In this document: positions 2,154 to 60,615 of the stretch, in pieces
Numbering within the stretch: position 1 is the first letter of the stretch
Layout of the letters: each line of letters starts with the position of its first letter
From: Shigella phage ESh26
DNA length: 64,000 nucleotides
Strand: one strand, 5' to 3'
Sequence record: ON528736
Position numbers and translations under genes: made by a program
Notes under the pieces: model-generated
The model's input: only the letters and a program-made list of their open reading frames with translations
The model's database searches: none
Told to the model about the DNA's origin: nothing

Positions 2154-5100
2154 ATGGCCGAGATTAAAAGAAAGTTCAGAGCAGAAGATGGTCTGGACGC
2201 AGGTGGCGATAAAATAATCAACGTAGCTTTAGCTGATCGTGCCGTAGGAACTGACGGTGTTAACGTTGATTACCTAATTCAAGAAAATACAGTTCAACAA
2301 TACGATCCAACTCGTGGATATTTAAAAGATTTTGTAATCATTTATGATAACCGCTTTTGGGCTGCTATAAATGATATTCCAAAACCGGCAGGAGCTTTTA
2401 ATAGCGGACGCTGGAGAGCATTACGTACCGATGCTAACTGGATTACAGTCTCATCTGGTTCATATCAATTAAAATCTGGTGAAGCTATTTCGGTTAACAC
2501 TGCAGCTGGTAATGATATTACATTTACTTTACCATCTACTCCAATTGATGGTGATACTATCGTTCTCCAAGATATTGGAGGAAAACCTGGAGTTAACCAA
2601 GTTTTAATTGTAGCTCCAGTGCAAAGTATTGTAAACTTCAGAGGCGAGCAAGTACGTTCAGTACTAATGACTCATCCAAAGTCACAGTTAGTTTTAATTT
2701 TTAGTAATCGTCTGTGGCAAATGTATGTAGCTGATTATAGTAGAGAAGCTGTAGTTGTAACACCAGCGAATACTTATCAAGCGCAATCTAATGATTTTAT
2801 CGTACGTAGATTTACTTCTGCTGCACCGATAAATATTAAACTTCCGAGATTTGCTAATCACGGCGATATTATTAATTTCGTCGATTTGGATAAATTAAAC
2901 CCTCTTTATCATACAATTGTTACGACATATGATGAAACGACATCAGTACAAGAAGATGGAACTCATTCCATTGAAGGCCGTACATCGATTGACGGTTTCT
3001 TGATGTTTGATGATAATGAGAAATTATGGAGATTGTTTGACGGGGACAGTAAAGCACGTTTACGTATCATAACGACTAATTCAAATATTCGTCCAAACGA
3101 AGAAGTTATGGTATTTGGTGCAAATAACGGAACAACTCAAACGATTGAGCTTCAGCTTCCAACTAATATTTCTGTTGGTGATACTGTTAAAATTTCCATG
3201 AATTACATGAGAAAAGGACAAACGGTTAAAATCAAAGCTGCCGGTGAAGATAAAATTGCTTCTTCAGTTCAATTGCTGCAATTCCCAAAACGTTCAGAAT
3301 ATCCACCTGAAGCTGAATGGGTGACTGTCCAAGAATTAGTTTTTAATGGCGAAACTAATTATGTTCCAGTTTTACAACTTGCTTATATAGAAGATTCTGA
3401 TGGAAAATACTGGGTTGTACAACAAAACGTTCCAACCGTAGAAAGAGTTGATTCTTTAAACGATTCTACTAGAGCAAGATTAGGCGTGATTGCTTTAGCT
3501 ACACAAGCGCAAGCTAATGTCGATTTAGAAAATTCTCCACAAAAAGAATTAGCAATTACTCCAGAAACATTAGCTAACCGTACTGCTACAGAAACTCGTA
3601 GAGGTATCGCGAGAATAGCAACTACTGCTCAAGTGAATCAGAACACCACATTCTCTTTTGCTGATGATATTATCATCACTCCTAAAAAGCTGAATGAAAG
3701 AACTGCTACAGAAACTCGTAGAGGTGTTGCTGAAATTGCTACGCAACAGGAAACTAATGCAGGTACTGATGATACTACAATCATCACTCCTAAAAAGCTT
3801 CAAGCTCGACAAGGTTCTGAATCATTATCTGGTATTGTAACCTTTGTATCTACCGCAGGAGCTACTCCAGCTTCTAGTCGTGAATTAAATGGTACAAACG
3901 TTTATAATAAAAACACTAATAATTTAGTTGTTTCGCCTAAAGCACTGGATCAGTATAAAGCTACTCCAACGCAACAAGGTGCAGTAATTTTAGCAGTTGA
4001 AAGTGAAGTAATTGCTGGACAGAGTCAAGAAGGATGGGCAAATGCGGTTGTAACGCCAGAAACGTTACATAAAAAGACATCAACTGATGGAAGAATTGGT
4101 TTAATTGAAATTGCTACGCAAAGTGAAGTTAATACAGGAACTGATTATACTCGTGCAGTCACTCCTAAAACTTTAAATGACCGTAAAGCAACTGAAAGTT
4201 TAAGTGGTATAGCTGAAATTGCTACACAAGTTGAATTCGACGCAGGCGTCGACGATACTCGTATCTCTACACCATTAAAAATTAAAACTAGATTTGATAG
4301 TACTGATCGTACTTCTGTTGTTGCTCTATCTGGATTAGTTGAATCAGGAACTCTCTGGGACCATTATACCCTTAATATTCTTGAAGCAAATGAGACACAG
4401 CGTGGTACACTTCGTGTAGCTACACAGGTTGAAGCTGCTGCAGGAACATTAGATAATGTTTTAATAACTCCTAAAAAGCTTTTAGGTACTAAATCTACCG
4501 AATCGCAGGAAGGTGTTATTAAAGTTGCAACTCAGTCTGAAACTGTAACTGGAGCGTCAGCAAATACTGCTGTATCTCCAAAAAATTTAAAATGGATTGT
4601 ACAGAGTGAACCTACTTGGGCAGCTACTACTGCGATAAGAGGCTTTGTTAAAACTTCATCTGGTTCAATTACATTCGTTGGTAATGATACAGCTGGTTCT
4701 ACGCAGGACTTAGAGCTATACGAGAAAAATAGCTATGCAGTATCACCATATGAATTAAACCGTGTATTAGCAAATTATTTGCCATTAAAAGCAAAAGCTG
4801 CTGATACAAATTTATTGGATGGTCTAGATTCATCTCAGTTCATTCGTAGGGATATTGCACAGACGGTTAATGGTTCACTAACCTTAACCCAACAAACGAA
4901 TCTGAGTGCCCCTCTTGTATCATCTAGTACTGCTACGTTTGGCGGATCAGTTTCGGCAAACAGCACATTAACTATTTCTAATACTGGAACGGCAACTCGT
5001 CTGATTTTTGAGAAAGGACCTCAAACTGGAACTAACCCAGTACAGACGATGACTATCAGAGTTTGGGGAAATCAGTTTGGTGGCGGTTCAGATACAACAC

Positions 5101-15367: not shown

Positions 15368-16003
15368 TCACAGTTCAGATGCTACGGTGATTACTGCTTC
15401 AATGTTTTCTGCCGAGCGTTTAATGTCAAGATACACATTACCGTTTTTAGCGATTTTACATGACATTCCGATATCAGTAAATTTCTGAATATGGTGTTCC
15501 ATCATTTTGTATCCAAAAATTCGCATATTTCCATTGTTATTAATTTCAAAATTACGAATTCCGTGAGTGCGTTTTTCTAAAATAGCAAGATAGTTACTGC
15601 GGTAAGTTTCAACCTTTTTAAGAACAAATCCATTTTCATCTAAAAGTTTTAACATGAAGTCTTTATCTTCTTCCATATCGGAAGTAATCTCACGAGCTTT
15701 ACGAGTTGCTCGTTTTTTCAGCAGTTCAGGAGCATTTTCCTGCGCATATAAAGTTGCCGCATTTGAAATAATATCCTGAGCTTCACCAGTAATGATTAAT
15801 CCATCACCAGATTTTTCCACCAGGCCTTTTTTAATCAATACCCCAATATTACTATTAACTACTGCGTTACCTAAATCTGGATGCACCTCACGAACTTCTG
15901 CAGCTGTAATGAAATCTTTCTTAGCAATGGTAATTAAAATCGCAGCAGTTTTTTCATTCAGAACATCGTTAGAAGCTTTGATGATGTAAGTTACTTTAGA
16001 CAT
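15368..16003 (-). CDS. motA: MotA middle-transcription activator
   Basis: 211-aa ORF MSKVTYIIKASNDVLNEKTAAILITIAKKDF... recognised as T4 MotA. Confidence 0.92.
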   Translation of the reverse strand: MSKVTYIIKASNDVLNEKTAAILITIAKKDFITAAEVREVHPDLGNAVVNSNIGVLIKKGLVEKSGDGLIITGEAQDIISNAATLYAQENAPELLKKRATRKAREITSDMEEDKDFMLKLLDENGFVLKKVETYRSNYLAILEKRTHGIRNFEINNNGNMRIFGYKMMEHHIQKFTDIGMSCKIAKNGNVYLDIKRSAENIEAVITVASEL

Positions 16004-16044
16004 TTTCTAATCTCCGTAATTCTGTATCAGTAGTTGATAGTTGT

Positions 16045-16074
16045 ATAGTACCACAGTATGCTTTGGTTGTAAAC
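16045..16074 (-). promoter_or_regulatory. Early promoter of motA (cassette copy A)
   Basis: Minus strand GTTTAC-18 nt-TGG-TACTAT, A/T-rich upstream element, 5'UTR caactatcaactactgatacag shared with other copies. Confidence 0.7.
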
Positions 16075-16098
16075 CGTTTTGTGAAAAAATTTTTGAAA

Positions 16099-16126
16099 TA
16101 AAAAAAGGGAGAGCCGAGGCTCTCCC
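16099..16126 (-). terminator. Rho-independent terminator upstream of the motA promoter
   Basis: GGGAGAGCC-(2 nt)-GGCTCTCCC inverted repeat followed on minus strand by a 7-U run. Confidence 0.7.
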
Positions 16127-16132
16127 TAAAAA

Positions 16133-19222: not shown

Positions 19223-19322
19223 AGTAAGCGTTTAATACATCAATCATTAAAACGATTGGGAATATACTCAAAACTATTAATATTATAACTACATTCCATA
19301 TAGCTTTAACAATCTTTTTCAT
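19209..19322 (-). CDS. Small hydrophobic membrane protein (37 aa)
   Basis: Track ORF 19209..19418 starts non-ATG inside 5'UTR; ATG at 19322 follows GGAGG SD and gives MKKIVKAIWNVVIILIVLSIFPIVLMIDVLNAYFGFM. Confidence 0.4.
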   Translation of the reverse strand: MKKIVKAIWNVVIILIVLSIFPIVLMIDVLNAYFGFM

Positions 19323-19350
19323 TTTCTGTTCCTCCGTAGTTGATAGGGTA

Positions 19351-19380
19351 ATAATACCACAGAGGAACAGTCTTGTAAAC
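19351..19380 (-). promoter_or_regulatory. T4-type early promoter
   Basis: Minus strand GTTTAC-18 nt-TGG-TATTAT, then UTR with GGAGG SD before ATG at 19322. Confidence 0.6.
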
Positions 19381-19596
19381 AACTTTTTAAAAATATTCGT
19401 AATAAATGTGAATACCAATCACCACTGCCGAAACTTGCGCAACCCACCATGCACAAGCAATAAGTACAGAATTCAAAATTTTCATAATAACCTCATTACA
19501 AAAGTAAATATTAAACAAATTAATGGAATACTAACTAACCAAACAAAACACCACCACAATGAACTCATAGTTCAATCTCAACGATTTTCATTTTAC

Positions 19597-19803
19597 TCAA
19601 TAATCTGCTAAAAGATTGACGATTGCATCACGAAGACACTTATTCGCAATACGTTTAAGAGCAATTTCAGTTTCTGGAGCATTTTGAATAATCATTGAAT
19701 TCAATTCAGCCTCAGCAAACTGAAGTTCTTTAACTAATTCAGCTTTATATTTTCCTTGCCCTTTCTTAGCTTTTGCTCGTTTTAATTCAGCTGTAGTAAA
19801 CAT
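19597..19803 (-). CDS. Hypothetical protein (68 aa; denB-downstream)
   Basis: Track ORF 19597..19911 begins at TTG inside the UTR; ATG at 19803 (MFTTAELKRAKAKKGQGKYK...) follows the cassette SD ggagaataaa. Confidence 0.5.
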   Translation of the reverse strand: MFTTAELKRAKAKKGQGKYKAELVKELQFAEAELNSMIIQNAPETEIALKRIANKCLRDAIVNLLADY

Positions 19804-19844
19804 TTTATTCTCCAAATCCGTATCAGTTGATAGTTGATAGTTGT

Positions 19845-19874
19845 ATAGTACCACAGTCCTTGTGGTATGTAAAC
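19845..19874 (-). promoter_or_regulatory. Early promoter (cassette copy B)
   Basis: Minus strand GTTTAC-18 nt-TGG-TACTAT; promoter and UTR near-identical to copy at 46920-46983. Confidence 0.65.
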
Positions 19875-19892
19875 CGTTTTGTGAAAATTTTT

Positions 19893-20450
19893 TTAAATGG
19901 AAAGATACCATCCGTTGTAGTTGCTTTTTCTTACAACCTTACGAAGGTCTTCTCTATCACCGATGAACTTCGGAGTGTACTGGATGACACCTGGGTGAAT
20001 TTCTTTAGTGTTGAATATAATTATACAGTCAGCGACCTGATGATTCAGAATGGGCCCTAGATTTATTCCAGAACCGTATGGATACTCTCCGCTGCATCCT
20101 GTTGTTACAGAAATCCAACGTGAGTCAGTTTGATGTGTCTTAACTTCTACACGAAGCCCGCAGTATCTTGGATGCGCCAATACATCCCATGCGTATGTAT
20201 ACGGGTCATTAACATCCTCTTGGCCTTTGTTAACATACCCGCTTAGCCAATCTGCTACAAAAAACTCTGCGTACACCGCGATACGACATCTTTCGATAAC
20301 TTCTGCTTTATCCTGGTTCGGGTTTTGTTTTAAAGAGTATCTTGCTGTATCAGCAATTTTGACCTTCATTTCACTAGTCAAGTCACTGTTCGATAGGGTA
20401 AATGTCGGAATCTGAAATAGTCTCTGTAAACCCGGATTCGTTTTCTGCAT
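19893..20450 (-). CDS. denB: Endonuclease IV (DenB), cytosine-DNA-specific
   Basis: 185-aa ORF MQKTNPGLQRLFQIPTFTLSNSDLTSEMKVKIAD... recognised as T4 DenB. Confidence 0.9.
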   Translation of the reverse strand: MQKTNPGLQRLFQIPTFTLSNSDLTSEMKVKIADTARYSLKQNPNQDKAEVIERCRIAVYAEFFVADWLSGYVNKGQEDVNDPYTYAWDVLAHPRYCGLRVEVKTHQTDSRWISVTTGCSGEYPYGSGINLGPILNHQVADCIIIFNTKEIHPGVIQYTPKFIGDREDLRKVVRKSNYNGWYLSI

Positions 20451-20712: not shown

Positions 20713-20730
20713 AATTTTTCCTTAAAACAA

Positions 20731-20959: not shown

Positions 20960-20975
20960 AAGGGCCGAAGCCCTT
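20960..20975 (-). promoter_or_regulatory. UUCG-tetraloop hairpin overlapping rIIB stop codon
   Basis: Minus-strand RNA AAGGGC-UUCG-GCCCUU; plus-strand text aagggccgaagccctt. Confidence 0.6.
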
Positions 20976-21912
20976 ATTTAAATTGTTCAGTAACGTCTTC
21001 AACTACTTCGTATTGGCAGGTACGCATTTTAGCATCGTTGTAATCAATTGGAATTGATACTACATCACGCGGATGTACTTTAACTTTTACAACTCGGCTG
21101 GTTGAACTGCCAAAGTGACGAATATAAGATTTAGAACACACATGCAGACCACGAGAACAAGTTTGTGTATCATCGTCATTCACACGAGTACGTGGCATTT
21201 TAACTACTTTACCAGGACTGTTATCAAAAGTATTTGAATGACAGTCAAAGTAATTACTGCGAACTACTTTCCAAGCATAGAAGTAACCATCTTCTGTAAT
21301 TTCAATATCGTTTGCTACCAAGAAATCGAAGAGTCGAGATACCGCTTTTTGGCTCGGGTTTTCCAACAGATTTTCCAAGAACGGAAAATAAAATTCAAAG
21401 TTTTCGCCTTTTTCCATCGAATCGAGAATACGATCAACTAAACCAGACCGCAATTCAATATTTTGATAGAACAAGCTTCCACCTTCAATTCGAACATCAC
21501 CGGAAATATATTTTTCAACAGCGCGACGAACATTAATTTTTTGTGCCGCTTCTTCCAATTTATCTGCAACAAGCAGATTAAGAATTTCCTGGAAGTTTGA
21601 ATGAGTATTAGGAGTTGCGTTATAAGTTACACCATCAACAGTAATTGAAATGAATTTTTTAGATGCATTCCAAATAATGTCAGATTTAGCAACTGGAGCA
21701 ATAGCGGTATCGCTATTAACTTTAACTGTAATATCACCGCTAATGGTAACTTTGGAGCGCTCAGCTTCTTCAGCATTTTTCAAAACACGACGGATTGTGT
21801 CAACCGATACACCTTGCCAATCAGCCAATTCCTGCTGGGTGTAATTACCACTTGAATACAGTTTGACAATTTCAGCTTGTTCGTTTTTGGTCAGGCATTT
21901 AATATTGTACAT
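20974..21912 (-). CDS. rIIB: rIIB membrane-associated protein
   Basis: 312-aa ORF MYNIKCLTKNEQAEIVKLYSSGNYTQQELADWQG...; size and position as T4 rIIB. Confidence 0.92.
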   Translation of the reverse strand: MYNIKCLTKNEQAEIVKLYSSGNYTQQELADWQGVSVDTIRRVLKNAEEAERSKVTISGDITVKVNSDTAIAPVAKSDIIWNASKKFISITVDGVTYNATPNTHSNFQEILNLLVADKLEEAAQKINVRRAVEKYISGDVRIEGGSLFYQNIELRSGLVDRILDSMEKGENFEFYFPFLENLLENPSQKAVSRLFDFLVANDIEITEDGYFYAWKVVRSNYFDCHSNTFDNSPGKVVKMPRTRVNDDDTQTCSRGLHVCSKSYIRHFGSSTSRVVKVKVHPRDVVSIPIDYNDAKMRTCQYEVVEDVTEQFK

Positions 21913-24370: not shown

Positions 24371-26187
24371 TACTGGCTCATCCATTCTTTACGAAGGTCA
24401 GCATTATCTCCCATGAGCATTTCAAAAAGCTCTTTCCAGTTCTCAGGAAGTTTAACAACATCATATACTGGGTTTTGAATCATCTCACGATATTCAGATT
24501 TTTCCAAAGAGCCAAGTCCCTTAATATAACGGATGCTATGTTTAGGTAGAGCATCTTTGGCACTCTCATATTCAGCGACTGTATAAAACCATTCTTGTTT
24601 TTTACCGACCTGAGCGATGATTACAGGAGTTTTGACGAAACGAATTCTTCCTTGTTCAAACAGTTCTGGCCAATTACTAAAAAATCCGAGCAGAGAAGGA
24701 TAAATGCTTCCTAGACCATCATGGTCAGCATCGGTCATAATAGCAATATTATGATAATTCAAGTTTTCAGCTTTTTCACCAAGAACTAATCCAGTGATTG
24801 CGCAAATATCAAACAGTTCTTTGTTTTTAAGCATATCAGCATATGACATACCCCAACTGTTGAGAACTTTACCACGCAATGGATAACCACCATGAAGTTC
24901 TTTATCACGAACATCAATGAGATATCCGATAGCAGAATCACCCTCAGTCAAGAAAAGAGTCGTGTCAGCATCTTTACCACAAAGATTCGCTTTAATATGT
25001 TTATGAACCTTAGCTTTAGAAGCCTTTTTAGCTGCTTTAGTTTCTGCTGCCTTTTCTGCCGCCAATTTACGAGCCAAGGCAGCTTCAATAATTGGCATTA
25101 AAATTGCTTCATTATTTAAAATAGCGCGTGAAATCTTTTTAGCATCAAGCTGAATATGACTACGAATTTCACCAAATGGAGAAGTCAAACGCTCTTTAGT
25201 TTGAGAATCAAATCGCATGTTTTTCATATCACGAACAAACATGACGATAGTCAAACATTCTTTAACACGTGCTTTAGTTACATCAATTTTGAACTTGCGT
25301 TTGATTTGTGGAATAAGGTCTTCACAAATATCATCCATAACACAATCAATGTGATGGCCACCATTCTTAGTATGAATGTTATTGACGTATGTTAATTGAC
25401 GAAAACCATCCGGTGAACGACCAACCGCAATAGAACAATTTTCTTGTTCTTGAACAATAGCATGCTCATCATATTGGCGTGCATATTTCTTAAAATTACC
25501 CTGAACCTTTTTACCGTTAAAGGTAAATTGAATATCAGGATAAACTACTGCAAGTGTCTGGAGACGATCTAATGTAATGTCAAGATAAACTTGAGATAGC
25601 TCATTAGTTTCAAATGACATAAAATCAGGAATGAAAGTAACACGAGTTCCTTTCCATTTTCCGGGAATATCTTCCCATGATTTATTTTCCATGCCATTTG
25701 AACAACGAACTACAATATTATTTTGACCGTCGCCAGTTTCACCGACAAACATCACAGAAAAAATGTTAGTTAAACTAGAACCAACACCATTCATACCGCC
25801 AGTGACGCGTTCTTTGTCATCACCAAAGTTACCACCTGCTTTTGGAATAGTCCAGGCAGCAACAGGACCAGGAATTTCTTCACCAGTAGGTGTTTTAACC
25901 ATCGCCTGTGGAATACCGCGACCGTTATCTTCAACTGTTACTTGATTGTTTTTGATAGTAACATTAATTTTATTTGCGAATTTAAACTTAGTACGAATAC
26001 CTTCATCTACTGAGTTATCGATAATTTCATCAATAAGCTTAACAAGACCAGGTACATACTGAACACTTTCCCATTTACCAAACAGAAAGCGCTCATGCAT
26101 TTCATTAGCAGAAGAACCAATGTACATGCCGCTACGCTTTTTGATATGTTCAATATCGCTCAGAATTTTAATTTCATTCTTAATCAT
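24370..26187 (-). CDS. 39: DNA topoisomerase II large subunit gp39, unsplit (includes the region that is a separate gene 60 in T4)
   Basis: ORF track 606 aa starting at GTG; ATG one codon in gives 605 aa; GHKL ATPase N-terminus plus TOPRIM-like EGDSA motif in one frame. Confidence 0.9.
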   Translation of the reverse strand: MIKNEIKILSDIEHIKKRSGMYIGSSANEMHERFLFGKWESVQYVPGLVKLIDEIIDNSVDEGIRTKFKFANKINVTIKNNQVTVEDNGRGIPQAMVKTPTGEEIPGPVAAWTIPKAGGNFGDDKERVTGGMNGVGSSLTNIFSVMFVGETGDGQNNIVVRCSNGMENKSWEDIPGKWKGTRVTFIPDFMSFETNELSQVYLDITLDRLQTLAVVYPDIQFTFNGKKVQGNFKKYARQYDEHAIVQEQENCSIAVGRSPDGFRQLTYVNNIHTKNGGHHIDCVMDDICEDLIPQIKRKFKIDVTKARVKECLTIVMFVRDMKNMRFDSQTKERLTSPFGEIRSHIQLDAKKISRAILNNEAILMPIIEAALARKLAAEKAAETKAAKKASKAKVHKHIKANLCGKDADTTLFLTEGDSAIGYLIDVRDKELHGGYPLRGKVLNSWGMSYADMLKNKELFDICAITGLVLGEKAENLNYHNIAIMTDADHDGLGSIYPSLLGFFSNWPELFEQGRIRFVKTPVIIAQVGKKQEWFYTVAEYESAKDALPKHSIRYIKGLGSLEKSEYREMIQNPVYDVVKLPENWKELFEMLMGDNADLRKEWMSQ

Positions 26188-27722: not shown

Positions 27723-27992
27723 TTAATTGAACAGTGGAGCGATGCGTTTCAGAAGAGTAGCAGCACCTTTGGCGAATTTTACATCATGAAAAACAGTTTC
27801 TTCTTCCGTTACAACACGAGCTTTAATGTTTTCACAATCCCAATTTTTACGAACAATCTTCAAAAGCTGCAGTAAATCTTTACATTCAGCAATATCGATA
27901 ACACATCCACGAGAATCTTCCATTATCGCACGATAACCGTAAGCCATACCATAATCGTTGAAAGATTGTTCGATGATAATTAAGTTTTCCAT
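27723..27992 (-). CDS. Hypothetical protein (89 aa)
   Basis: Track ORF starts at TTG inside UTR; ATG at 27992 follows cassette SD ggagaataaa (MENLIIIEQSFNDYG...). Confidence 0.5.
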   Translation of the reverse strand: MENLIIIEQSFNDYGMAYGYRAIMEDSRGCVIDIAECKDLLQLLKIVRKNWDCENIKARVVTEEETVFHDVKFAKGAATLLKRIAPLFN

Positions 27993-28035
27993 TTTATTCT
28001 CCAAGTTGTTTTCTGTATCAGTAGTTGATATTGAT

Positions 28036-28065
28036 ATAGTACCATAATCAACTACTGATGTATAT
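28036..28065 (-). promoter_or_regulatory. Early promoter (cassette copy D) with -10 inside a 13-bp inverted repeat
   Basis: TGG-TACTAT extended -10, degenerate -35 (ATATAC), A/T-rich upstream; flanked by atcagtagttgat (28017-28029) and atcaactactgat (28047-28059). Confidence 0.55.
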
Positions 28066-28089
28066 AGTTTTATGAAAAAATTTTAAACT

Positions 28090-29208: not shown

Positions 29209-29721
29209 TTATCTCATTTCAATAAAATCTACAAGTTCAGCATGGGATTTGCGGAACATTACTTGGTGTCCGCCAATGATAACTTCATCTTCAGGAACTT
29301 CATAAATCGCAATGTACATTCCACGATCTTTTAAGTCTTCACGCTCTTCTCGGGTGAACCATCTCATCATATCATATTCATTAGCGAAAGCAAAATGATA
29401 TAATGAAATAAGCCACAATGGAATATAATTTTCAAATTGTGAATAATCTTTATTCCATTTAGTTTTAATAGCATCATTAGCATTTTCAACTAATAACTTA
29501 TCATCATGCGGAATAGGAATACTTTCATGGCTTTCATAATTATCGCTATGATGATGAAATGATGATGAATTAATACCACAAAATTTTAGCCAGGTTCGAG
29601 TTTTCATAGAATCAAATCCACGGTAAGGAGTTGATTGAACGCATAACTCTTGCCTAATTTTCACTATACCACTATCATCATTTAATGCGCTAAACGATGA
29701 TTCAACACGATAAATTTTCAT
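29209..29721 (-). CDS. Hypothetical protein (170 aa)
   Basis: Track ORF 29209..29760; ATG at 29721 (MKIYRVESSF...) sits downstream of early promoter. Confidence 0.5.
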   Translation of the reverse strand: MKIYRVESSFSALNDDSGIVKIRQELCVQSTPYRGFDSMKTRTWLKFCGINSSSFHHHSDNYESHESIPIPHDDKLLVENANDAIKTKWNKDYSQFENYIPLWLISLYHFAFANEYDMMRWFTREEREDLKDRGMYIAIYEVPEDEVIIGGHQVMFRKSHAELVDFIEMR

Positions 29722-29748
29722 TTTATTATCCTCAGTAGCTATGGTGTT

Positions 29749-29778
29749 ATAATACCACAACTAACCGAGGAAGTAAAC
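29749..29778 (-). promoter_or_regulatory. T4-type early promoter
   Basis: Minus strand GTTTAC-18 nt-TGG-TATTAT between dexA stop and next ORF. Confidence 0.6.
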
Positions 29779-38334: not shown

Positions 38335-38359
38335 ATTATACAATAAATATATAAAGCAA
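38335..38359 (-). promoter_or_regulatory. MotA-dependent middle promoter for gene 56
   Basis: Minus strand TTGCTTTA (MotA box) - 11 nt - TATAAT about 35 nt upstream of gene 56 ATG. Confidence 0.6.
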
Positions 38360-38371
38360 TAAGGAGGACAT

Positions 38372-41187: not shown

Positions 41188-41216
41188 AAAAATCTCCTCA
41201 TTTAACCAACAAGACT

Positions 41217-41246
41217 ACTATACCATAGTCTTGTCGGCTTGTAAAC
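41217..41246 (-). promoter_or_regulatory. T4-type early promoter; -10 lies inside an 8-bp inverted repeat; -35 overlaps gene 41 stop
   Basis: Minus strand GTTTAC-18 nt-TGG-TATAGT; inverted repeat caagacta (41210-41217) / tagtcttg (41226-41233). Confidence 0.6.
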
Positions 41247-43045: not shown

Positions 43046-44201
43046 TTAACTGATCTAGGTCAGTTTCTAAATCAGCTGCTGATTTACTTTTACTTTCTGG
43101 AGATTTAAATTTTTCAACCTTTGAGTTAATCAATTCATCAACTTCAGCTTCAACAATTTCATTACTATCAATAGCACCTAACTGATAAGCACGTTTAATA
43201 GCATCTCGGAATGGCTGATGCTTAAATAAAGGACCCCAGAATGTAGTGCAGTTGGTATCTTTTGCACGCCAAGATTTTTCTTCGCGAATCATCTCACCGG
43301 TTTCTTCGTCAAGAAATTCACGAGCATACCAGCCATTTTTAGGTTTTACCACAAATCCTAATTCTAGAGCCATATCTAACAATCCAGAATAAGGATCGAT
43401 GCCACCGTCAAATTTAACATCAATAAAGAATTTACTTTTTTCTTTAACGGTACGAGATTTTTCTACATTTAGAACAAATTGATACCCCTGAAGATCAGAA
43501 CCATCTTTAATCTGGCGCTTACCGATAATGAATACGGTATCAGCCGAATACATTACGCCTGTACCACCTGTCATCACGGTTTTACTAAACATTTCAATTG
43601 TTTCAATTGTATGGTTAACCGCAACGCATGGAATGTTTTTAATACTAAAATAAGGAGTAACAATACGGAATAATGACTTCAGTGATTTAGCACGAGTCAT
43701 ATCTGCTACAGATTTTTCATTCAAGGCATCTTCCGTTTCTTTCTTAGAAGCCATATTACCGATTGAGTCGATGAATACAATAACTTTTTCACCGCGCTCA
43801 ATAGCTTCAAGCTGATTCACCATATCAATTTTCAGCTGTTCAACTGACTGAATTGGTGTATGAATTACTCGTTCCGGGTCAACTCCCATGGATCGCAAAT
43901 AAGCTGGAGTAATACCAAATTCGCTATCATAAAATAGACAAACCGCGTCAGGATATTTGTTCAAATACGCCGCAACCATAGTCAAAGACATATTTGATTT
44001 AAAGTGTTTAGAAGGACCTGCAAAAATGGTTAAACCAGACTGCATACCACCATCAATCGCACCAGAAATAGCGATATTAAGCATTGGGATTTTTGTACGG
44101 ATTACATCCTTTTCATTAAAGAATTTAGATGCAGTCAGTTCAGCAGTCATTTTAGAAGTGGAAGCTTTAATCAAACGGGATTTTAAATCTGCAATAGACA
44201 T
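43020..44201 (-). CDS. uvsX: UvsX recombinase (RecA-like)
   Basis: 393-aa ORF MSIADLKSRLIKASTSKMTAELTASKFFNEKD...; RecA-fold ATPase motifs; close to but not identical with remembered T4 UvsX. Confidence 0.92.
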   Translation of the reverse strand: MSIADLKSRLIKASTSKMTAELTASKFFNEKDVIRTKIPMLNIAISGAIDGGMQSGLTIFAGPSKHFKSNMSLTMVAAYLNKYPDAVCLFYDSEFGITPAYLRSMGVDPERVIHTPIQSVEQLKIDMVNQLEAIERGEKVIVFIDSIGNMASKKETEDALNEKSVADMTRAKSLKSLFRIVTPYFSIKNIPCVAVNHTIETIEMFSKTVMTGGTGVMYSADTVFIIGKRQIKDGSDLQGYQFVLNVEKSRTVKEKSKFFIDVKFDGGIDPYSGLLDMALELGFVVKPKNGWYAREFLDEETGEMIREEKSWRAKDTNCTTFWGPLFKHQPFRDAIKRAYQLGAIDSNEIVEAEVDELINSKVEKFKSPESKSKSAADLETDLDQLSDMEEFNE

Positions 44202-44278
44202 TCATTTTTTCCATAGGCATCATTATATTTTCCTCACTGGTTAAAGATAGAGTAATTATAACACAATAAATTTAGGCA

Positions 44279-45127
44279 TTAATCGACTGCTATTGGATGA
44301 ATAGCATTAAACTTATGAAACGCTTCTGATTTTTCTTTGCGTGAAACACACATGCGAAGAACCTTTAATGGCTCGTCTTCTTCACCCAACGATTTTCTCT
44401 TTTCGATATTCGATGTTTTCCAACGAGCTTGCTCTGGAAACTCTCTATTGATTTGCTCAAGAGCTCTATTATGTTTTGAATTACTACGAATTGAACTACA
44501 TCCGCCAGGAGCTTGTGCTTTTCCAGATACAACCAGATATTTGAACAAGGCCAAATGCGGATAACCTTGATTAATTAAATTGAGAAATGCATACATATCT
44601 TCGCATAAATCAATTTTTCCATACCCAATTTGTTCTGTCGTGAGTTTTCCAAGGTCATACCATGTATTCGTGAATCCATATGAATTTTCACGATAATTAC
44701 CCCAAGATGAAGTAATTTTAAAAATTGGTAGACGAGCATGGCCATGATAATACCCACAATCCATGGCATCTTCAACGTATTGAATCAATTCATAGAACTG
44801 TTCACGAGTTAATTGATTAATTTTATCTACACAGCGACGATCATCTTTCTTTCGCATTGAACTCATACGAATAGTAGTATCATCGTCAATCATCCAGATT
44901 CGTTGACCTGCATACATATCAGTAATTGCTTTACGAGTACCAGCAATTCCATTAACATCATCAGGAATAGTTATAATTTTGGCTTTAGACCCGTAAGCGT
45001 CATAATAAGCTTTTTCTTCGTGTTCACGTACTACAATATGAGGTTCATAATCAGTCGGAAACATATCAAGGGCAGAAACTGCCCCTACGCGTTGATAGCT
45101 TGGAATTACGAATTGAATCATTTCCAC
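44279..45127 (-). CDS. Glycosyltransferase (282 aa) at the beta-gt locus; candidate beta-glucosyl-HMC alpha-glucosyltransferase
   Basis: ORF with DDD motif (RIWMIDDDTTI); occupies the uvsX-42 interval where T4 has 351-aa beta-gt; no resemblance to remembered T4 beta-gt. Confidence 0.55.
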   Translation of the reverse strand: MEMIQFVIPSYQRVGAVSALDMFPTDYEPHIVVREHEEKAYYDAYGSKAKIITIPDDVNGIAGTRKAITDMYAGQRIWMIDDDTTIRMSSMRKKDDRRCVDKINQLTREQFYELIQYVEDAMDCGYYHGHARLPIFKITSSWGNYRENSYGFTNTWYDLGKLTTEQIGYGKIDLCEDMYAFLNLINQGYPHLALFKYLVVSGKAQAPGGCSSIRSNSKHNRALEQINREFPEQARWKTSNIEKRKSLGEEDEPLKVLRMCVSRKEKSEAFHKFNAIHPIAVD

Positions 45128-45858
45128 TCACCATTATAATCTTTTTTCACAATATGAGTTTCGCCAGTATTCCACCAATGATCAACCAAGTAAAAATGAC
45201 GAGAATATACATGAAGACTTCCAACATTCCATATAATAGAACCTGCTTTATACTGACGAGTTGAATCACCTGCATTCAAATCAGATACTAATTTATCTAG
45301 TACGTATTTTTGCCATGCATAATCATTACGGAATCCGAAGACAACGTCATTTGAACGCATGCTCACTACTGCATTGACTTTCTTATCACGAATCAGGTAC
45401 TGTACTGTATTCGTACACATGAAATCTGACATACCATCTTTATTGTAGTCAAACTGCATGGATGGACGAGTATAAATCATGATACCGCGTCGAGAATCAG
45501 GATTTTGACCAAGTTCAGCTAAACACATATCATATTGGGCATAGTTATCTTCTGACCAGATGGCCCAACCATAATTCGAATTAATTTCGCCTTTAGAAGA
45601 TGCTACCTGTTGCCAAATCTTCGGTGTTTCACCTGGAATATCTTTAACAAACAAACTTTTAGATTTATACCATTCAAGTTCACGCTGAATGTATTCATCA
45701 TTAAGAGCGCCAAAAATAAATGGTTCATCTGCTACAAATGATGCGCCAATAATTTCAATAGTTTTAACGCCAGTTTTATCAACTACGAAATCTTTTTCCT
45801 TTAATGCAAGCCCCAAATGAAGACGGATTTCTTCAACTGTCATAGAGTCACTAATCAT
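45118..45858 (-). CDS. 42: dCMP hydroxymethylase gp42
   Basis: 246-aa ORF; thymidylate-synthase-like fold; size as T4 gp42. Confidence 0.92.
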   Translation of the reverse strand: MISDSMTVEEIRLHLGLALKEKDFVVDKTGVKTIEIIGASFVADEPFIFGALNDEYIQRELEWYKSKSLFVKDIPGETPKIWQQVASSKGEINSNYGWAIWSEDNYAQYDMCLAELGQNPDSRRGIMIYTRPSMQFDYNKDGMSDFMCTNTVQYLIRDKKVNAVVSMRSNDVVFGFRNDYAWQKYVLDKLVSDLNAGDSTRQYKAGSIIWNVGSLHVYSRHFYLVDHWWNTGETHIVKKDYNGEWK

Positions 45859-46661: not shown

Positions 46662-46919
46662 TCAAATACAAGCAGTAATTACTCCAGTAGTGCTTACACA
46701 GGTATTACCTAATTGAACACCAAGCGTTCCATTAGTATTCATATGAAGATTATCATCAATTTTTGTTGATACTTTACCATTCATGTGAATAACAGTATTA
46801 GATTCAATCACATTCTGAGTGTCATTTTCAATATCAATAAATGGAACAGCTGCTAATGCAACTAGAACAACTGCTAATGCAACTAAACACGCTGCTAAAC
46901 AACCATAAACAATTTTCAT
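46662..46919 (-). CDS. Hypothetical membrane/secreted protein (85 aa)
   Basis: Track ORF starts upstream inside UTR; ATG at 46919 follows cassette SD ggagaataaa; MKIVYGCLAACLVALAVVLVALAAV... Confidence 0.5.
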   Translation of the reverse strand: MKIVYGCLAACLVALAVVLVALAAVPFIDIENDTQNVIESNTVIHMNGKVSTKIDDNLHMNTNGTLGVQLGNTCVSTTGVITACI

Positions 46920-46953
46920 TTTATTCTCCAAATCCGTATCAGTTGATAGTTGT

Positions 46954-46983
46954 ATAGTACCATGGAAGAACAGAGATGTAAAC
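46954..46983 (-). promoter_or_regulatory. Early promoter (cassette copy C)
   Basis: Minus strand GTTTAC-18 nt-TGG-TACTAT; UTR identical to copy B apart from a 7-nt duplication. Confidence 0.65.
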
Positions 46984-47065
46984 CGTTTTGTGAAAAAATT
47001 TTTAATGAATTTACAGGACCTAGAATCATCTATTTTTCCTAAGTATAGATTTATATTACTTGTAT

Positions 47066-47087
47066 GAAAAAGGGACCCGGAGGTCCC
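47066..47087 (-). terminator. Terminator hairpin after gene 43
   Basis: GGGACC-(4-nt loop)-GGTCCC followed on minus strand by 5-U run, 14 nt after gene 43 stop. Confidence 0.6.
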
Positions 47088-47100
47088 TAGATTTATTCTA

Positions 47101-52051: not shown

Positions 52052-52069
52052 AAAGGGCCGAAGCCCTTT
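52052..52069 (-). promoter_or_regulatory. UUCG-tetraloop hairpin between genes 45 and 44
   Basis: Minus-strand RNA AAAGGGC-UUCG-GCCCUUU. Confidence 0.6.
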
Positions 52070-52070
52070 A

Positions 52071-52757
52071 TTAAAAATCGTGGGTAGAATCAGCTTCAAG
52101 AGCTACTACATAATTCGCGTGTTCACCTTCAAATTTAGCAGCACCTTGTTTACCTTTTGCCCAGAGCAGAAGTTTATAATTTCCTGGTTGCATTTTCATA
52201 TTTGCCATATTGATAATGAAATTAAATGTATTTTCACCATCATAATCACCAAGAGTCAAAGAATATTTAACGCGAGTCAAAGCAGAATCTTCTACTTTGT
52301 TAAAACCGTTAATTACAATTTTACCTTCTTTTACTGTGATAGCAATTGTATCAATCTGCAGACCACGAGATACACGCAACAGCTGTTGAAGGTCTTCAGC
52401 TTTAATTTCGGTAACAACAGATGCTACCGGGAATGGAATTGGTTTATTAGGAGCAACTACTGTACTCGGATCGGCTGCTGGCCAAAAAATTGTTGAACGA
52501 GCATCAGCAATTTTAATATTTCCATCTTCTGACTGGGAAATTTCTGCATCGTCATTAACTAAAGACAGAATACCGAGAAAACCGTTCAAATCGTAAATTG
52601 CTACATCAAAATCAATAGTGTCAGAAATATTTGCTTCCGCATAAGTTGTACCATTAACTGCGCGAGTCATAATAAATTGACCAGATTTAAGCATAATACC
52701 AGAGTTAATAGTAGCGAAATTTTTGAGCAGAGCAGTAGTATCTTTAGACAGTTTCAT
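52071..52757 (-). CDS. 45: Sliding clamp gp45
   Basis: 228-aa ORF MKLSKDTTALLKNFATINSGIMLKSGQFIMTRAV... recognised as T4 gp45. Confidence 0.92.
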   Translation of the reverse strand: MKLSKDTTALLKNFATINSGIMLKSGQFIMTRAVNGTTYAEANISDTIDFDVAIYDLNGFLGILSLVNDDAEISQSEDGNIKIADARSTIFWPAADPSTVVAPNKPIPFPVASVVTEIKAEDLQQLLRVSRGLQIDTIAITVKEGKIVINGFNKVEDSALTRVKYSLTLGDYDGENTFNFIINMANMKMQPGNYKLLLWAKGKQGAAKFEGEHANYVVALEADSTHDF

Positions 52758-56761: not shown

Positions 56762-56779
56762 AAAGGGCCGAAGCCCTTT
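56762..56779 (-). promoter_or_regulatory. UUCG-tetraloop hairpin overlapping a-gt stop
   Basis: Minus-strand RNA AAAGGGC-UUCG-GCCCUUU. Confidence 0.6.
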
Positions 56780-57980
56780 ATTTTGTAATAATGTCAAACT
56801 GTTCTTTAAAGCAGAAGCTTGAATCTTGATGCTGATACAAAAATTCATAAGCTTTTTCGCGTTCACGGTCATAAAGAGCTCGGTCAGATGACAGTTCTTT
56901 AATACGCTCAAATGTTGATTCCATGTCATTTTCATCAAACCAAACGATACCGCTATCATGAGAAATTAACGGAGTATTATCAACACGGAATTTTAAATTT
57001 TCGCCAGTAGATTTCCAAAATACCGGAATTGTTCCGCACGCACCAAGCTCGAGATGAGTATATTCTAAAGAACGTTGTAGATATTTTTTGTCCAACTTAC
57101 TCAACTGATAACCAAATCCGGATTTACTCATGCGTTCAAGCATTTCGCTATTTACATAACGGTCGAGAATTTGCGTTGGCAAATTAGGAGCAATTTTAAT
57201 TTGGTCTACTTGATGAAGACGATAATACTCGTATGGAATTCCTTTTTCTTTAATAGGAATGAACGCTGGAGAACGTTCCAGACCTTCCATAATAGTACTT
57301 AGTCCAGCAGGTTTAAGATGTTTTTCGTGAAAATCAAACATCTGATAAAAGCCTTTCCATGTAGTCGTACGACCAATCCAACGGTTGACATTCATGTTAA
57401 TTTCAGAAACATCTTTCCAGTATGTTGATCGAACTTTCGCAATATCCATAGGAGGCTGAAAGTTGTATACGGTCGGTGCTTCTTCAATATCATCAAACAG
57501 AGAAACTGTTTCTGGATACCATTCTTTCATCAGAACTTTATTAAAATCACCATTATCAGAATGACTAAAAATAACATCAGCTCGGCGAACAGTTTCTTCT
57601 AATCCCAAATTTCGACGCAAAGAAAGAGAAGAATGGTCATGTTGATAAACTACAACACGAACCGAAGGTTTAATGTTATCAATAATTTTTTTATAGTTAT
57701 TAATAGTGTCTTCTTCGACTGAAGTAGCAGGAACTGAATTGATAATTAGAATATCACAATCATTTACCAGCTTAAGTGTTTTATCGTATTCTTTTGCCAA
57801 TAAAACCGGAATTGAAAATGATTTATAATCATGCGCGCAATTACGTGTAAATGATTTATCTTTAGCATAAACCAAAGTTACTTCATGACCATTTTTAATA
57901 AACCAATCACGCTGCTCAAGAGAAAATTTAGTTACGCCGCAACCTTCAAGACCTCGAGCCATAAAAATGCATACTTTCAT
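56778..57980 (-). CDS. a-gt: DNA alpha-glucosyltransferase
   Basis: 400-aa ORF MKVCIFMARGLEGCGVTKFSLEQRDWFIKNGHEVTL... recognised as T4 AGT. Confidence 0.9.
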   Translation of the reverse strand: MKVCIFMARGLEGCGVTKFSLEQRDWFIKNGHEVTLVYAKDKSFTRNCAHDYKSFSIPVLLAKEYDKTLKLVNDCDILIINSVPATSVEEDTINNYKKIIDNIKPSVRVVVYQHDHSSLSLRRNLGLEETVRRADVIFSHSDNGDFNKVLMKEWYPETVSLFDDIEEAPTVYNFQPPMDIAKVRSTYWKDVSEINMNVNRWIGRTTTWKGFYQMFDFHEKHLKPAGLSTIMEGLERSPAFIPIKEKGIPYEYYRLHQVDQIKIAPNLPTQILDRYVNSEMLERMSKSGFGYQLSKLDKKYLQRSLEYTHLELGACGTIPVFWKSTGENLKFRVDNTPLISHDSGIVWFDENDMESTFERIKELSSDRALYDREREKAYEFLYQHQDSSFCFKEQFDIITK

Positions 57981-60400: not shown

Positions 60401-60416
60401 AAGGGCCGAAGCCCTT
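60401..60416 (-). promoter_or_regulatory. UUCG-tetraloop hairpin
   Basis: Minus-strand RNA AAGGGC-UUCG-GCCCUU overlapping stop of 60415..60615 ORF. Confidence 0.6.
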
Positions 60417-60615
60417 AGCTAAATTTTTTGGCACCCTTCCAGCCTTCGTACATCATTGCAGCTGATATTAATATTGCTCCTGCGCATTTTGAATATTTGT
60501 GATTCCAAAACCAGTTTAGAAAAACTTCGTCATCAATACCTTGGGCTATCATATTTTCAAAGAACTGACGACGAGCTTCAGCAATTCGTTGCGATAATTT
60601 AGATTCAGGATTCAT
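60415..60615 (-). CDS. Hypothetical protein (66 aa)
   Basis: ORF. Confidence 0.45.
   Translation of the reverse strand: MNPESKLSQRIAEARRQFFENMIAQGIDDEVFLNWFWNHKYSKCAGAILISAAMMYEGWKGAKKFS

Follow-up and report, generated by a model that had tools for sequence, protein, structure and literature searches.

What makes a promoter, a 5' untranslated region (UTR) and a ribosome-binding site (RBS) recur, almost letter for letter, in front of unrelated genes? The question is raised by a locus at 46920-46983, on the minus strand of a 64,000-nt stretch of Shigella phage ESh26 DNA (record ON528736; hereafter the window, meaning the whole stretch that was analyzed). The original prediction was that this locus is one of four near-identical copies of a cassette resembling the mobile promoter-early-stem-loop (PeSL) units proposed to shuffle genes in T4-type genomes. 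The window is a Tequatrovirus (T4-like) segment, 97-99% identical to many Tequatrovirus genomes, which spans tail-fibre genes, then asiA-motA-52-ndd-denB-rII...42-imm-43 and beyond. We find that the original prediction is largely right, that it is incomplete and that it overstates mobility. The explanation that we consider probable is that each copy combines a T4 immediate-early promoter, an open leader and a RegB-sensitive RBS, yielding a short pulse of the first cistron, and that the copies are homogenized by selection and occasional recombination, their open reading frames (ORFs) turning over at the 3' junction.

Four early promoter modules and their T4 counterparts

The four minus-strand loci are present, and the coordinates that had been given for their -10 hexamer, TACTAT, are exact (16045-16050, 19845-19850, 28036-28041 and 46954-46959). 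Common to all four are an A/T-rich tract, a -35 hexamer, TGG-TACTAT, a leader of the form ACAACTATCAACT..(ACT)GATAC, GGAG and ATG. The modules, a shorter relative, a neighboring terminator and the downstream ORFs are laid out as follows, with coordinates of the window.

16001-16127, minus strand: copy A, early promoter module of motA (identified by Pfam MotA_activ and MotCF). Terminator hairpin immediately upstream, 16106-16127; UP element, ~16075-16095; -35 GTTTAC, 16069-16074; TGG, 16051-16053; -10 TACTAT, 16045-16050; predicted +1, an A, 16038; leader, 16004-16044; RegB-type Shine-Dalgarno (SD) sequence GGAGATTAGAA, 16005-16015, minus strand; ATG, 16001-16003.
19801-19896, minus strand: copy B, between denB (upstream) and the 68-aa ORF (downstream). 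UP element, ~19875-19896; -35, 19869-19874; TGG, 19851-19853; -10, 19845-19850; predicted +1, 19838; leader with an AACTATC tandem duplication; perfect RegB site GGAGAATAAAA, 19803-19813; ATG, 19801-19803.
27990-28088, minus strand: copy D, between motB (upstream) and the 89-aa ORF (downstream; the cef slot of T4). UP element, ~28066-28088; weak -35 ATATAC, 28060-28065; TGG, 28042-28044; -10, 28036-28041; predicted +1, 28029; perfect RegB site, 27992-28002; ATG, 27990-27992.
46917-47005, minus strand: copy C, the locus that raised the question, between gene 43 and the 85-aa membrane ORF. UP element, ~46984-47005; -35 GTTTAC, 46978-46983; TGG, 46960-46962; -10, 46954-46959; predicted +1, 46947; leader, 46920-46953; perfect RegB site GGAGAATAAAA, 46919-46929; ATG, 46917-46919.
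47071-47088, minus strand: intrinsic terminator hairpin of gene 43, AGGGACCTCCGGGTCCCT with a T-run after it, ~65 nt upstream of the copy C UP element.
19310-19399, minus strand: fifth, short-form member of the same repeat family (D1), with the leader CTATCAACTACGGAGG / taccCTATCAACTACGGAGGaacagaaaATG and without the GATAC block.
19597-19803, minus strand: 68-aa ORF, PHROG 4535.
27723-27992, minus strand: 89-aa ORF, PHROG 3720.
46662-46919, minus strand: 85-aa ORF, PHROG 4189, with a hydrophobic N-terminus.

In an unbiased repeat search these loci come out as the top and largest family (D1), and a degenerate core of 22 nt, TGGTACTATAYMAMTATCAACT, has four matches where 100 shuffles lead one to expect 0.01. 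The same search groups copies B and C on 36 identical nt from the UTR to the ATG (family D11). The two are indeed the same from TGG (-15) to ATG except for a 7-nt tandem duplication in B (AACTATC, or GATAGTT on the plus strand). The assignment of GTTTAC as the -35 of every copy holds for A, B and C but not for D, which has ATATAC (two mismatches) and fails a generic sigma-70 scan; the T4 orthologue of copy D likewise carries ATATAC. The short-form member (GTTTAC-18-TATTAT, with its -10 at 19351-19356) lies 494 nt downstream of B, and the two promoters form direct repeats that bracket the 68-aa ORF and the homologues of ndd.6/ndd.5, a tandem layout which, under the PeSL model, would be able to excise as a mini-circle. 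Altogether, ~11 early-type promoters are found in the window, 10 by a scripted scan plus copy D, and only the four modules have the full leader. The genes downstream are those that had been named, that is motA, recognized by its Pfam domains, and the ORFs of 68, 89 and 85 aa, all three of which belong to PHROG families of unknown function. Shared control of these first genes is a reasonable prediction.

In T4 (NC_000866), the orthologous slots are upstream of motA, ndd.6 (after denB), cef (after motB) and imm.1 (after gene 43). Further full copies are found upstream of nrdC.10 and e.8, beyond the range of the window, so that T4 has six full copies in total, plus two short ones (nrdC.8 and ndd.4) and a partial one (frd.3). 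The motA copies of T4 and ESh26 are identical from the A/T tract of the UP element through the ATG, with a single C/T difference just upstream of the tract. The nrdC.10 copy appears in the T4 GenBank record U76612 as "early promoter 54.4", preceded by a terminator, and copy C is annotated as a T4-type early promoter in phage SA20RB. An 89-nt query consisting of copy C matched at 3,607 places, spread over 545 phage records with typically 6-9 in each genome, and all but the weakest of these matches lie in genomes of T4 size from phages of enterobacterial hosts. The ESh26 modules share with the T4 early promoters (PE) their slots, a near-identical sequence, the UP element, GTTTAC (in A, B and C), TGn and TAnnnT, and we see no essential difference between them, a weak -35 and a palindrome around the -10 being features of copy D and its T4 orthologue alike. 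Judged by slot and sequence, the four modules are orthologues of catalogued T4 early promoters. T4 early promoters, with their UP, -35, TGn and -10 elements, are "uber" promoters, and they are reported to have been described by Liebig and Ruger in 1989 and by Wilkens and Ruger in 1996. A literature search found no genome-wide study of T4 transcription start sites, and a search for the literal sequence of the leader returned unrelated primer matches only.

A leader of three parts

As had been claimed, the likeness of the copies extends beyond the promoter hexamers. This was borne out by an alignment of the four copies of the window and the six of T4, in which identity, scored per segment over pairs of paralogues, took the following values.

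UP element: 73-86% pairwise identity among paralogues
-35: 86-90%
spacer from the -35 to TGG: 31-33%, the background for this composition
extended -10: 100%
first leader block: 78-90%
linker: 36-41%

Within the window, the UP element aaaaattttttcacaaaac(g/t) is found in all four copies with a mean pairwise identity of 86%, the extended -10 TGGTACTAT is 100% identical across copies, and 18 nt separate the two hexamers. Since their spacers are unrelated, the four copies are not recent duplicates of one another. In same-slot orthologues, variable columns amount to 0% in the -35, 0% in the extended -10, 4% in the start block, 5% in the RegB-type SD, 12% in the spacer and 21% in the UP element, all from small counts. 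The contrast between leader and spacer in orthologues is thus only modest, although suggestive in that it goes in the same direction as in paralogues, and what points to purifying selection on the leader is mainly the paralogue contrast.

What had been read as one UTR consists of three parts, namely a general start-site consensus, a block specific to this subfamily and an RBS explained by RegB and ribosomal protein S1. The first part, the start-site block TATCAACTA (-1 to +8; T-A-T-C-A-A-C-T-A), occurs at frequencies of 60-84% across 25 T4 early-type promoters taken from a loose scan of the T4 sequence minus ~5 kb of late region. Because it is present in most T4 early promoters, it corresponds to a general start-site consensus of these promoters, for which "additional regions of consensus" have been noted (Hinton 2010, PMC2988021).

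As for the RBS, it has the features of a RegB target. According to Durand et al. (2006, PMC1702504), who located RegB cleavage points in T4, the optimal site is GGAGAAUAAAA, the consensus is GGAGRAYARAA and the site has to be single-stranded; GGA is invariant in the RegB/S1 site, and the fourth position is G or rarely U. In the same study, motA RNA was a good RegB substrate and sequences 5' of GGAG accelerated the reaction, no specific sequence being required there; ACA motifs are S1 ligands. A RegB cut in the SD functionally inactivates early mRNAs, which then decay via PNK and RNases E and G (Uzan & Miller 2010, PMC3014915). All four copies in the window contain GGAG. The RBS of B, C and D, GGAGAATAAAA, agrees with the RegB consensus at 11 of 11 positions, and that of copy A (motA), GGAGATTAGAA, at 10 of 11. 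Perfect matches to the consensus number three in the 64-kb window, 0.43 being expected, and all lie in modules B, C and D. The identity of the RBSs among copies is therefore explained by the known RegB/S1 recognition sequence, which the original reading of the UTR and RBS left out of account. The RBS of B, C and D equals the optimal site.

The known RegB/S1 targets of T4 likewise consist of GGAG plus a 7-nt A-rich tract, single-stranded, between an early promoter and an ATG. Cleavage in vivo is documented in T4 for motA, and the sites of the small ESh26 ORFs are predicted from sequence; imm.1, ndd.6, cef, nrdC.10 and e.8 are not named in the running text of PMC1702504, which gives its list of sites as a figure. 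The regB gene itself lies outside the window; 501 Tequatrovirus records, close relatives of the window included, each have one copy of it. A GGAU-type RegB site, GGATAATAAAATG, is seen in the RBS of the gene downstream of another early promoter (29700-29760, minus strand; -10 at 29749-29754). In T4, the orthologous site, that of motB.2, and just one further GGAU motif are reported to be cleaved (PMC1702504).

Taken together, these elements suggest how the modules might work. By analogy with T4, the unmodified host sigma-70 RNA polymerase would be recruited very efficiently by the UP element, GTTTAC (weak in D), TGn and TACTAT, and transcription would probably start at the A 7 nt past the -10. 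The leader, computed to be unstructured, would leave the translation start open to S1 and the 30S subunit. The SD would at the same time be a RegB/S1 site, perfect (GGAGAAUAAAA) in B, C and D and corresponding to the known substrate GGAGAUUAGAA in motA, so that, as RegB builds up, the promoter-proximal cistron would be cut within its RBS, as in T4, translationally inactivated and degraded. Such a cut would lead to expression of motA and of the three small ORFs of unknown function as a short, RegB-limited pulse. The extended consensus, the RegB-sensitive RBSs and the gene-turnover junctions (PeSLs) are all already published for T4-type phages. The useful result is that four immediate-early transcription units of ESh26, plus a fifth, are now cleanly annotated, and a small synthesis can be added, namely that within the window a perfect RegB site is found only behind this promoter subtype.

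The middle part of the leader, the block ...CT[ACT]GATAC R G, sets the subfamily apart, together with the RBS; written as RNA, the block CAACU[ACU]GAUACRG (~+5 to +20) always comes after the start-site consensus and, in the window, always before an RBS of RegB consensus. One could see in it a separate cis-regulatory element, either a DNA operator for an early shut-off factor or an RNA enhancer that binds S1. A TATCA-N-TGATA dyad at about +2 to +16 would suit an operator, and the mechanism that shuts off early promoters is unknown (PMC2988021, PMC3014915); the acceleration of motA RNA cleavage by 5' sequences and the binding of S1 to ACA motifs (PMC1702504) would suit an enhancer, and an identity of 78-90% among old paralogues, together with co-occurrence with perfect RegB sites, is compatible with both. 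We nevertheless regard such an element as unlikely. Indels of 3 and 7 nt are tolerated within the block at a single slot, that of denB, where slippage in the ACT/AACTATC repeats yields modules of 91, 94 or 98 nt; this length variation of 0, +3 or +7 nt indicates that the exact spacing of the leader is not critical, and neither an operator of rigid layout nor a defined fold would be expected to allow this. Moreover, RegB needs no specific sequence 5' of GGAG (PMC1702504), no stable RNA fold is predicted and Rfam gives no match to the leader or anywhere else in the 64-kb window. From the predicted +1 to the first codons, minimum free energies are -0.8 to -4.7 kcal/mol (z -0.4 to +1.6), no better than those of shuffled sequences, which rules out RNA structure in the leader, of 28-37 nt and devoid of G before GATAC; the one strong hairpin, in copy D, requires a read-through RNA that includes the untranscribed spacer. 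Unlikely too is the stronger form of this reading, in which the block would be a discrete cis element defining a small regulon of ~6-9 immediate-early units per T4-type genome, either as an S1-recruiting RNA enhancer that makes RegB cleavage co-transcriptional or as the DNA target of early shut-off. The ~15-nt block might conceivably bear on T4 early shut-off. The sites of two host factors, IHF (WATCAANNNNTTR) and DnaA (the DnaA box), were compared by eye with TATCAACTACTGA and set aside, since each shows mismatches at core positions.

Probable exchange between copies and turnover of the first ORF

Returning to the explanation that we favor, the likeness of the copies would be maintained by selection on discrete elements together with occasional recombination or gene conversion. 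Selection might of course suffice, each locus keeping a consensus for early promoter and RegB site/translation initiation region by functional convergence or conservation alone, with no exchange and no gene shuffling. This would account for the background identity of the spacers between conserved blocks, for slot positions that are stable across genomes, and for a start block and an RBS that each follow a known or general consensus. It is nonetheless improbable in view of several T4 copies. The T4 promoters PnrdC.10 and Pfrd.3 (at 55.3 kb and 146.8 kb) are 100% identical over ~70 nt, including the supposedly neutral spacer, between unrelated flanks and with sharp borders, one at the terminator T-tract and the other after ACAACTATC, within the leader; to judge from sequence, they clearly look like a copied cassette with a breakpoint inside the leader. 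In addition, promoters of the imm.1, e.8 and ndd.4 type have spacer sequence in common (tgttcttcca / aagactgttc), e.8 is chimeric, an imm.1-type spacer being joined to a cef-type linker, and ndd.6 and imm.1 share 12 nt, ATGAAAATCGCT, beyond the module. From these we infer that some T4 copies are recombinant. Convergence is also at odds with the enrichment of indels at module 3' ends.

A check that had been proposed was to compare related phages for indels bounded by cassettes. Three of the four modules do adjoin an ORF presence/absence difference relative to T4, but none of the three indels is bounded by two cassettes. T4 lacks the 85-aa ORF of locus C and has imm.1 joined straight to the module; the direct repeat ATGAAAAT flanks this indel. 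The 68-aa ORF of locus B has no counterpart in T4 either, TAAAATG flanking the indel, and other relatives have an unrelated 87-aa ORF in this slot instead. At locus D, all that T4 keeps of the 89-aa ORF is 4 nt at its beginning and ~60 nt at its end; in T4 and several relatives, internal deletions starting just past the ATG have reduced this ORF to remnants of 4-12 codons. Locus A is collinear with T4. Short direct repeats located at translation starts (TAAAATG, ATGAAAAT and AAAA), with 4-8 nt of microhomology, form the edges of the indels, and the far edge coincides either with the start of the following gene or with a position within the ORF, where there is no second cassette. Deletion from cassette to cassette, considered as the source of the three indels, is ruled out by these junction sequences.

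Counting all indels or replacements of at least 30 nt between the early region of the window and T4 gives 17, three of which (at B, D and C) begin at the start codon of a module. These three sit 42-51 nt downstream of an early -10; random placement, a naive null, would give 0.24 such cases (P~0.001), and a null that allows indels at gene boundaries (~4 of ~100 gene starts) would give P ~0.03 by a rough, uncomputed estimate. The other 14 do not adjoin early promoters. Among the latter, T4 has 1.1 kb more at 24705-24770 and 0.9 kb more at 38340-38361, and the stretch 44189-45136, in the b-gt region, is replaced; several of the 14 match the places of T4 homing-endonuclease genes (mobA, segA, etc.).

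Across IMG/VR relatives the slots stay the same, whereas the first ORF changes. The denB slot holds one of three unrelated alternative ORFs, the gene 43 slot an ORF of 85 aa, one of 78 aa or none, and the motB slot an intact ORF or one of several different remnants. The idea that the cassettes themselves are mobile is therefore not borne out, T4 and the IMG/VR relatives having the same slots filled and differing in the first ORF. In our preferred explanation, the shared A-rich ...AATAAAATGAAAAT translation starts would serve as short-homology junctions at which a first ORF may be gained, lost or swapped, and this would be the behavior published for PeSLs.

The PeSL concept was taken from the RB49/phi1 pair to the T4/PST pair by Comeau et al. 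(2014, PMC4122927), who define a PeSL as an AT-rich region, a -35/-10, an SD and a start codon with stem-loops just upstream, linked to indels, and whose Fig. 6A depicts an exchange in the same denB-ndd region between T4 and PST. The resemblance that had been proposed is real inasmuch as a composite unit, with many copies per genome and associated with indels, fits this published T4/PST description. In ESh26, stem-loops lie upstream of the promoter (A and C) or around the -10 (D), none being detected at B, and ORF indels or replacements distinguish close relatives. In contrast to the crossovers between the -10 and the ATG of neighboring PeSLs described by Arbiol et al. (2010, PMC2839356), the ESh26 indel junctions are at translation-start microhomologies and not between two cassettes.

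Truly mobile cassettes would go further, with promoter-plus-ORF mini-circles formed between flanking cassettes and re-inserted elsewhere, and the copies would be recent transposed duplicates. Mini-circles between adjacent PeSLs have been demonstrated for RB49/phi1 (PMC2839356), copy B and the short-form promoter at 19351 offer a tandem pair 494 nt apart, and the denB slot has three alternative ORFs. We consider this very unlikely for ESh26, however, because the unrelated spacers of the four copies speak against recent duplication, because none of the three T4 indels has a second cassette at its far edge, where 4-8 nt of microhomology are seen, and because no ORF was found behind two different cassettes in the sampled genomes. 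Finally, chance resemblance in AT-rich intergenic DNA, for which only the low complexity of the UP element speaks, is already refuted by the four matches to TGGTACTATAYMAMTATCAACT against 0.01 expected, by the six matches to CTATCAACTR against 0.22 expected and by conservation of the module in 545 genomes.

Stem-loops and other repeated elements

The stem-loops that form part of the PeSL definition differ from copy to copy. As listed above, terminator hairpins precede copies A and C. Copy B, in contrast to published PeSLs, is without a G+C-rich stem-loop; hairpin-search tools detected no stem-loop there, and a 5-bp CCACA..TGTGG dyad is visible by eye in its spacer. The denB stop codon (19893-19895) falls within the UP element of copy B, which leaves no space for an upstream terminator hairpin, unlike in A and C. 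Spacer and leader of copy D are reverse complements of each other, resulting in an imperfect 20-nt palindrome around the -10 (28017-28059, minus strand). As read-through RNA this palindrome has a folding energy of -20.2 kcal/mol (z -4.5), and the T4 cef promoter has the identical palindrome. Read-through transcripts from motB could be processed or attenuated at such a hairpin; alternatively, the palindrome could form a cruciform and modulate a promoter whose -35 is weak.

Inverted repeats of 9-12 nt flanking the -10 are also seen by eye in other early-type promoters, for example CGACAAGACT ... AGTCTTGTTG. They occur in the window at ~41200-41245 (minus strand) and in T4 at -10 ends 20583, 57961, 73543, 73910, 129890 and 146114, and they resemble the RB49 class of PeSLs with a stem-loop overlapping the -10. 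A further parallel is provided by the internal-protein (IP) loci of T-even phages, at a different genomic locus from the ESh26 modules, where early-promoter/terminator repeats are reported to flank hypervariable small genes (Repoila et al. 1994, cited by PMC2839356 and PMC4122927).

The window contains two other kinds of repeats. Terminator hairpins of the form AAGGGCCGAAGCCCTT with a T/A-rich tail recur at 20960-20987, 52053-52080, 56763-56790 and 60401-60428 (also at 20722 and 26232); near-identical and intergenic, they constitute a second family of repeated regulatory punctuation. An apparent tail-fibre gene displays internal direct repeats of 33-68 nt, with 66-85% identity, at 3555-4480 (plus strand), which probably correspond to repeated structural motifs of the fibre shaft.
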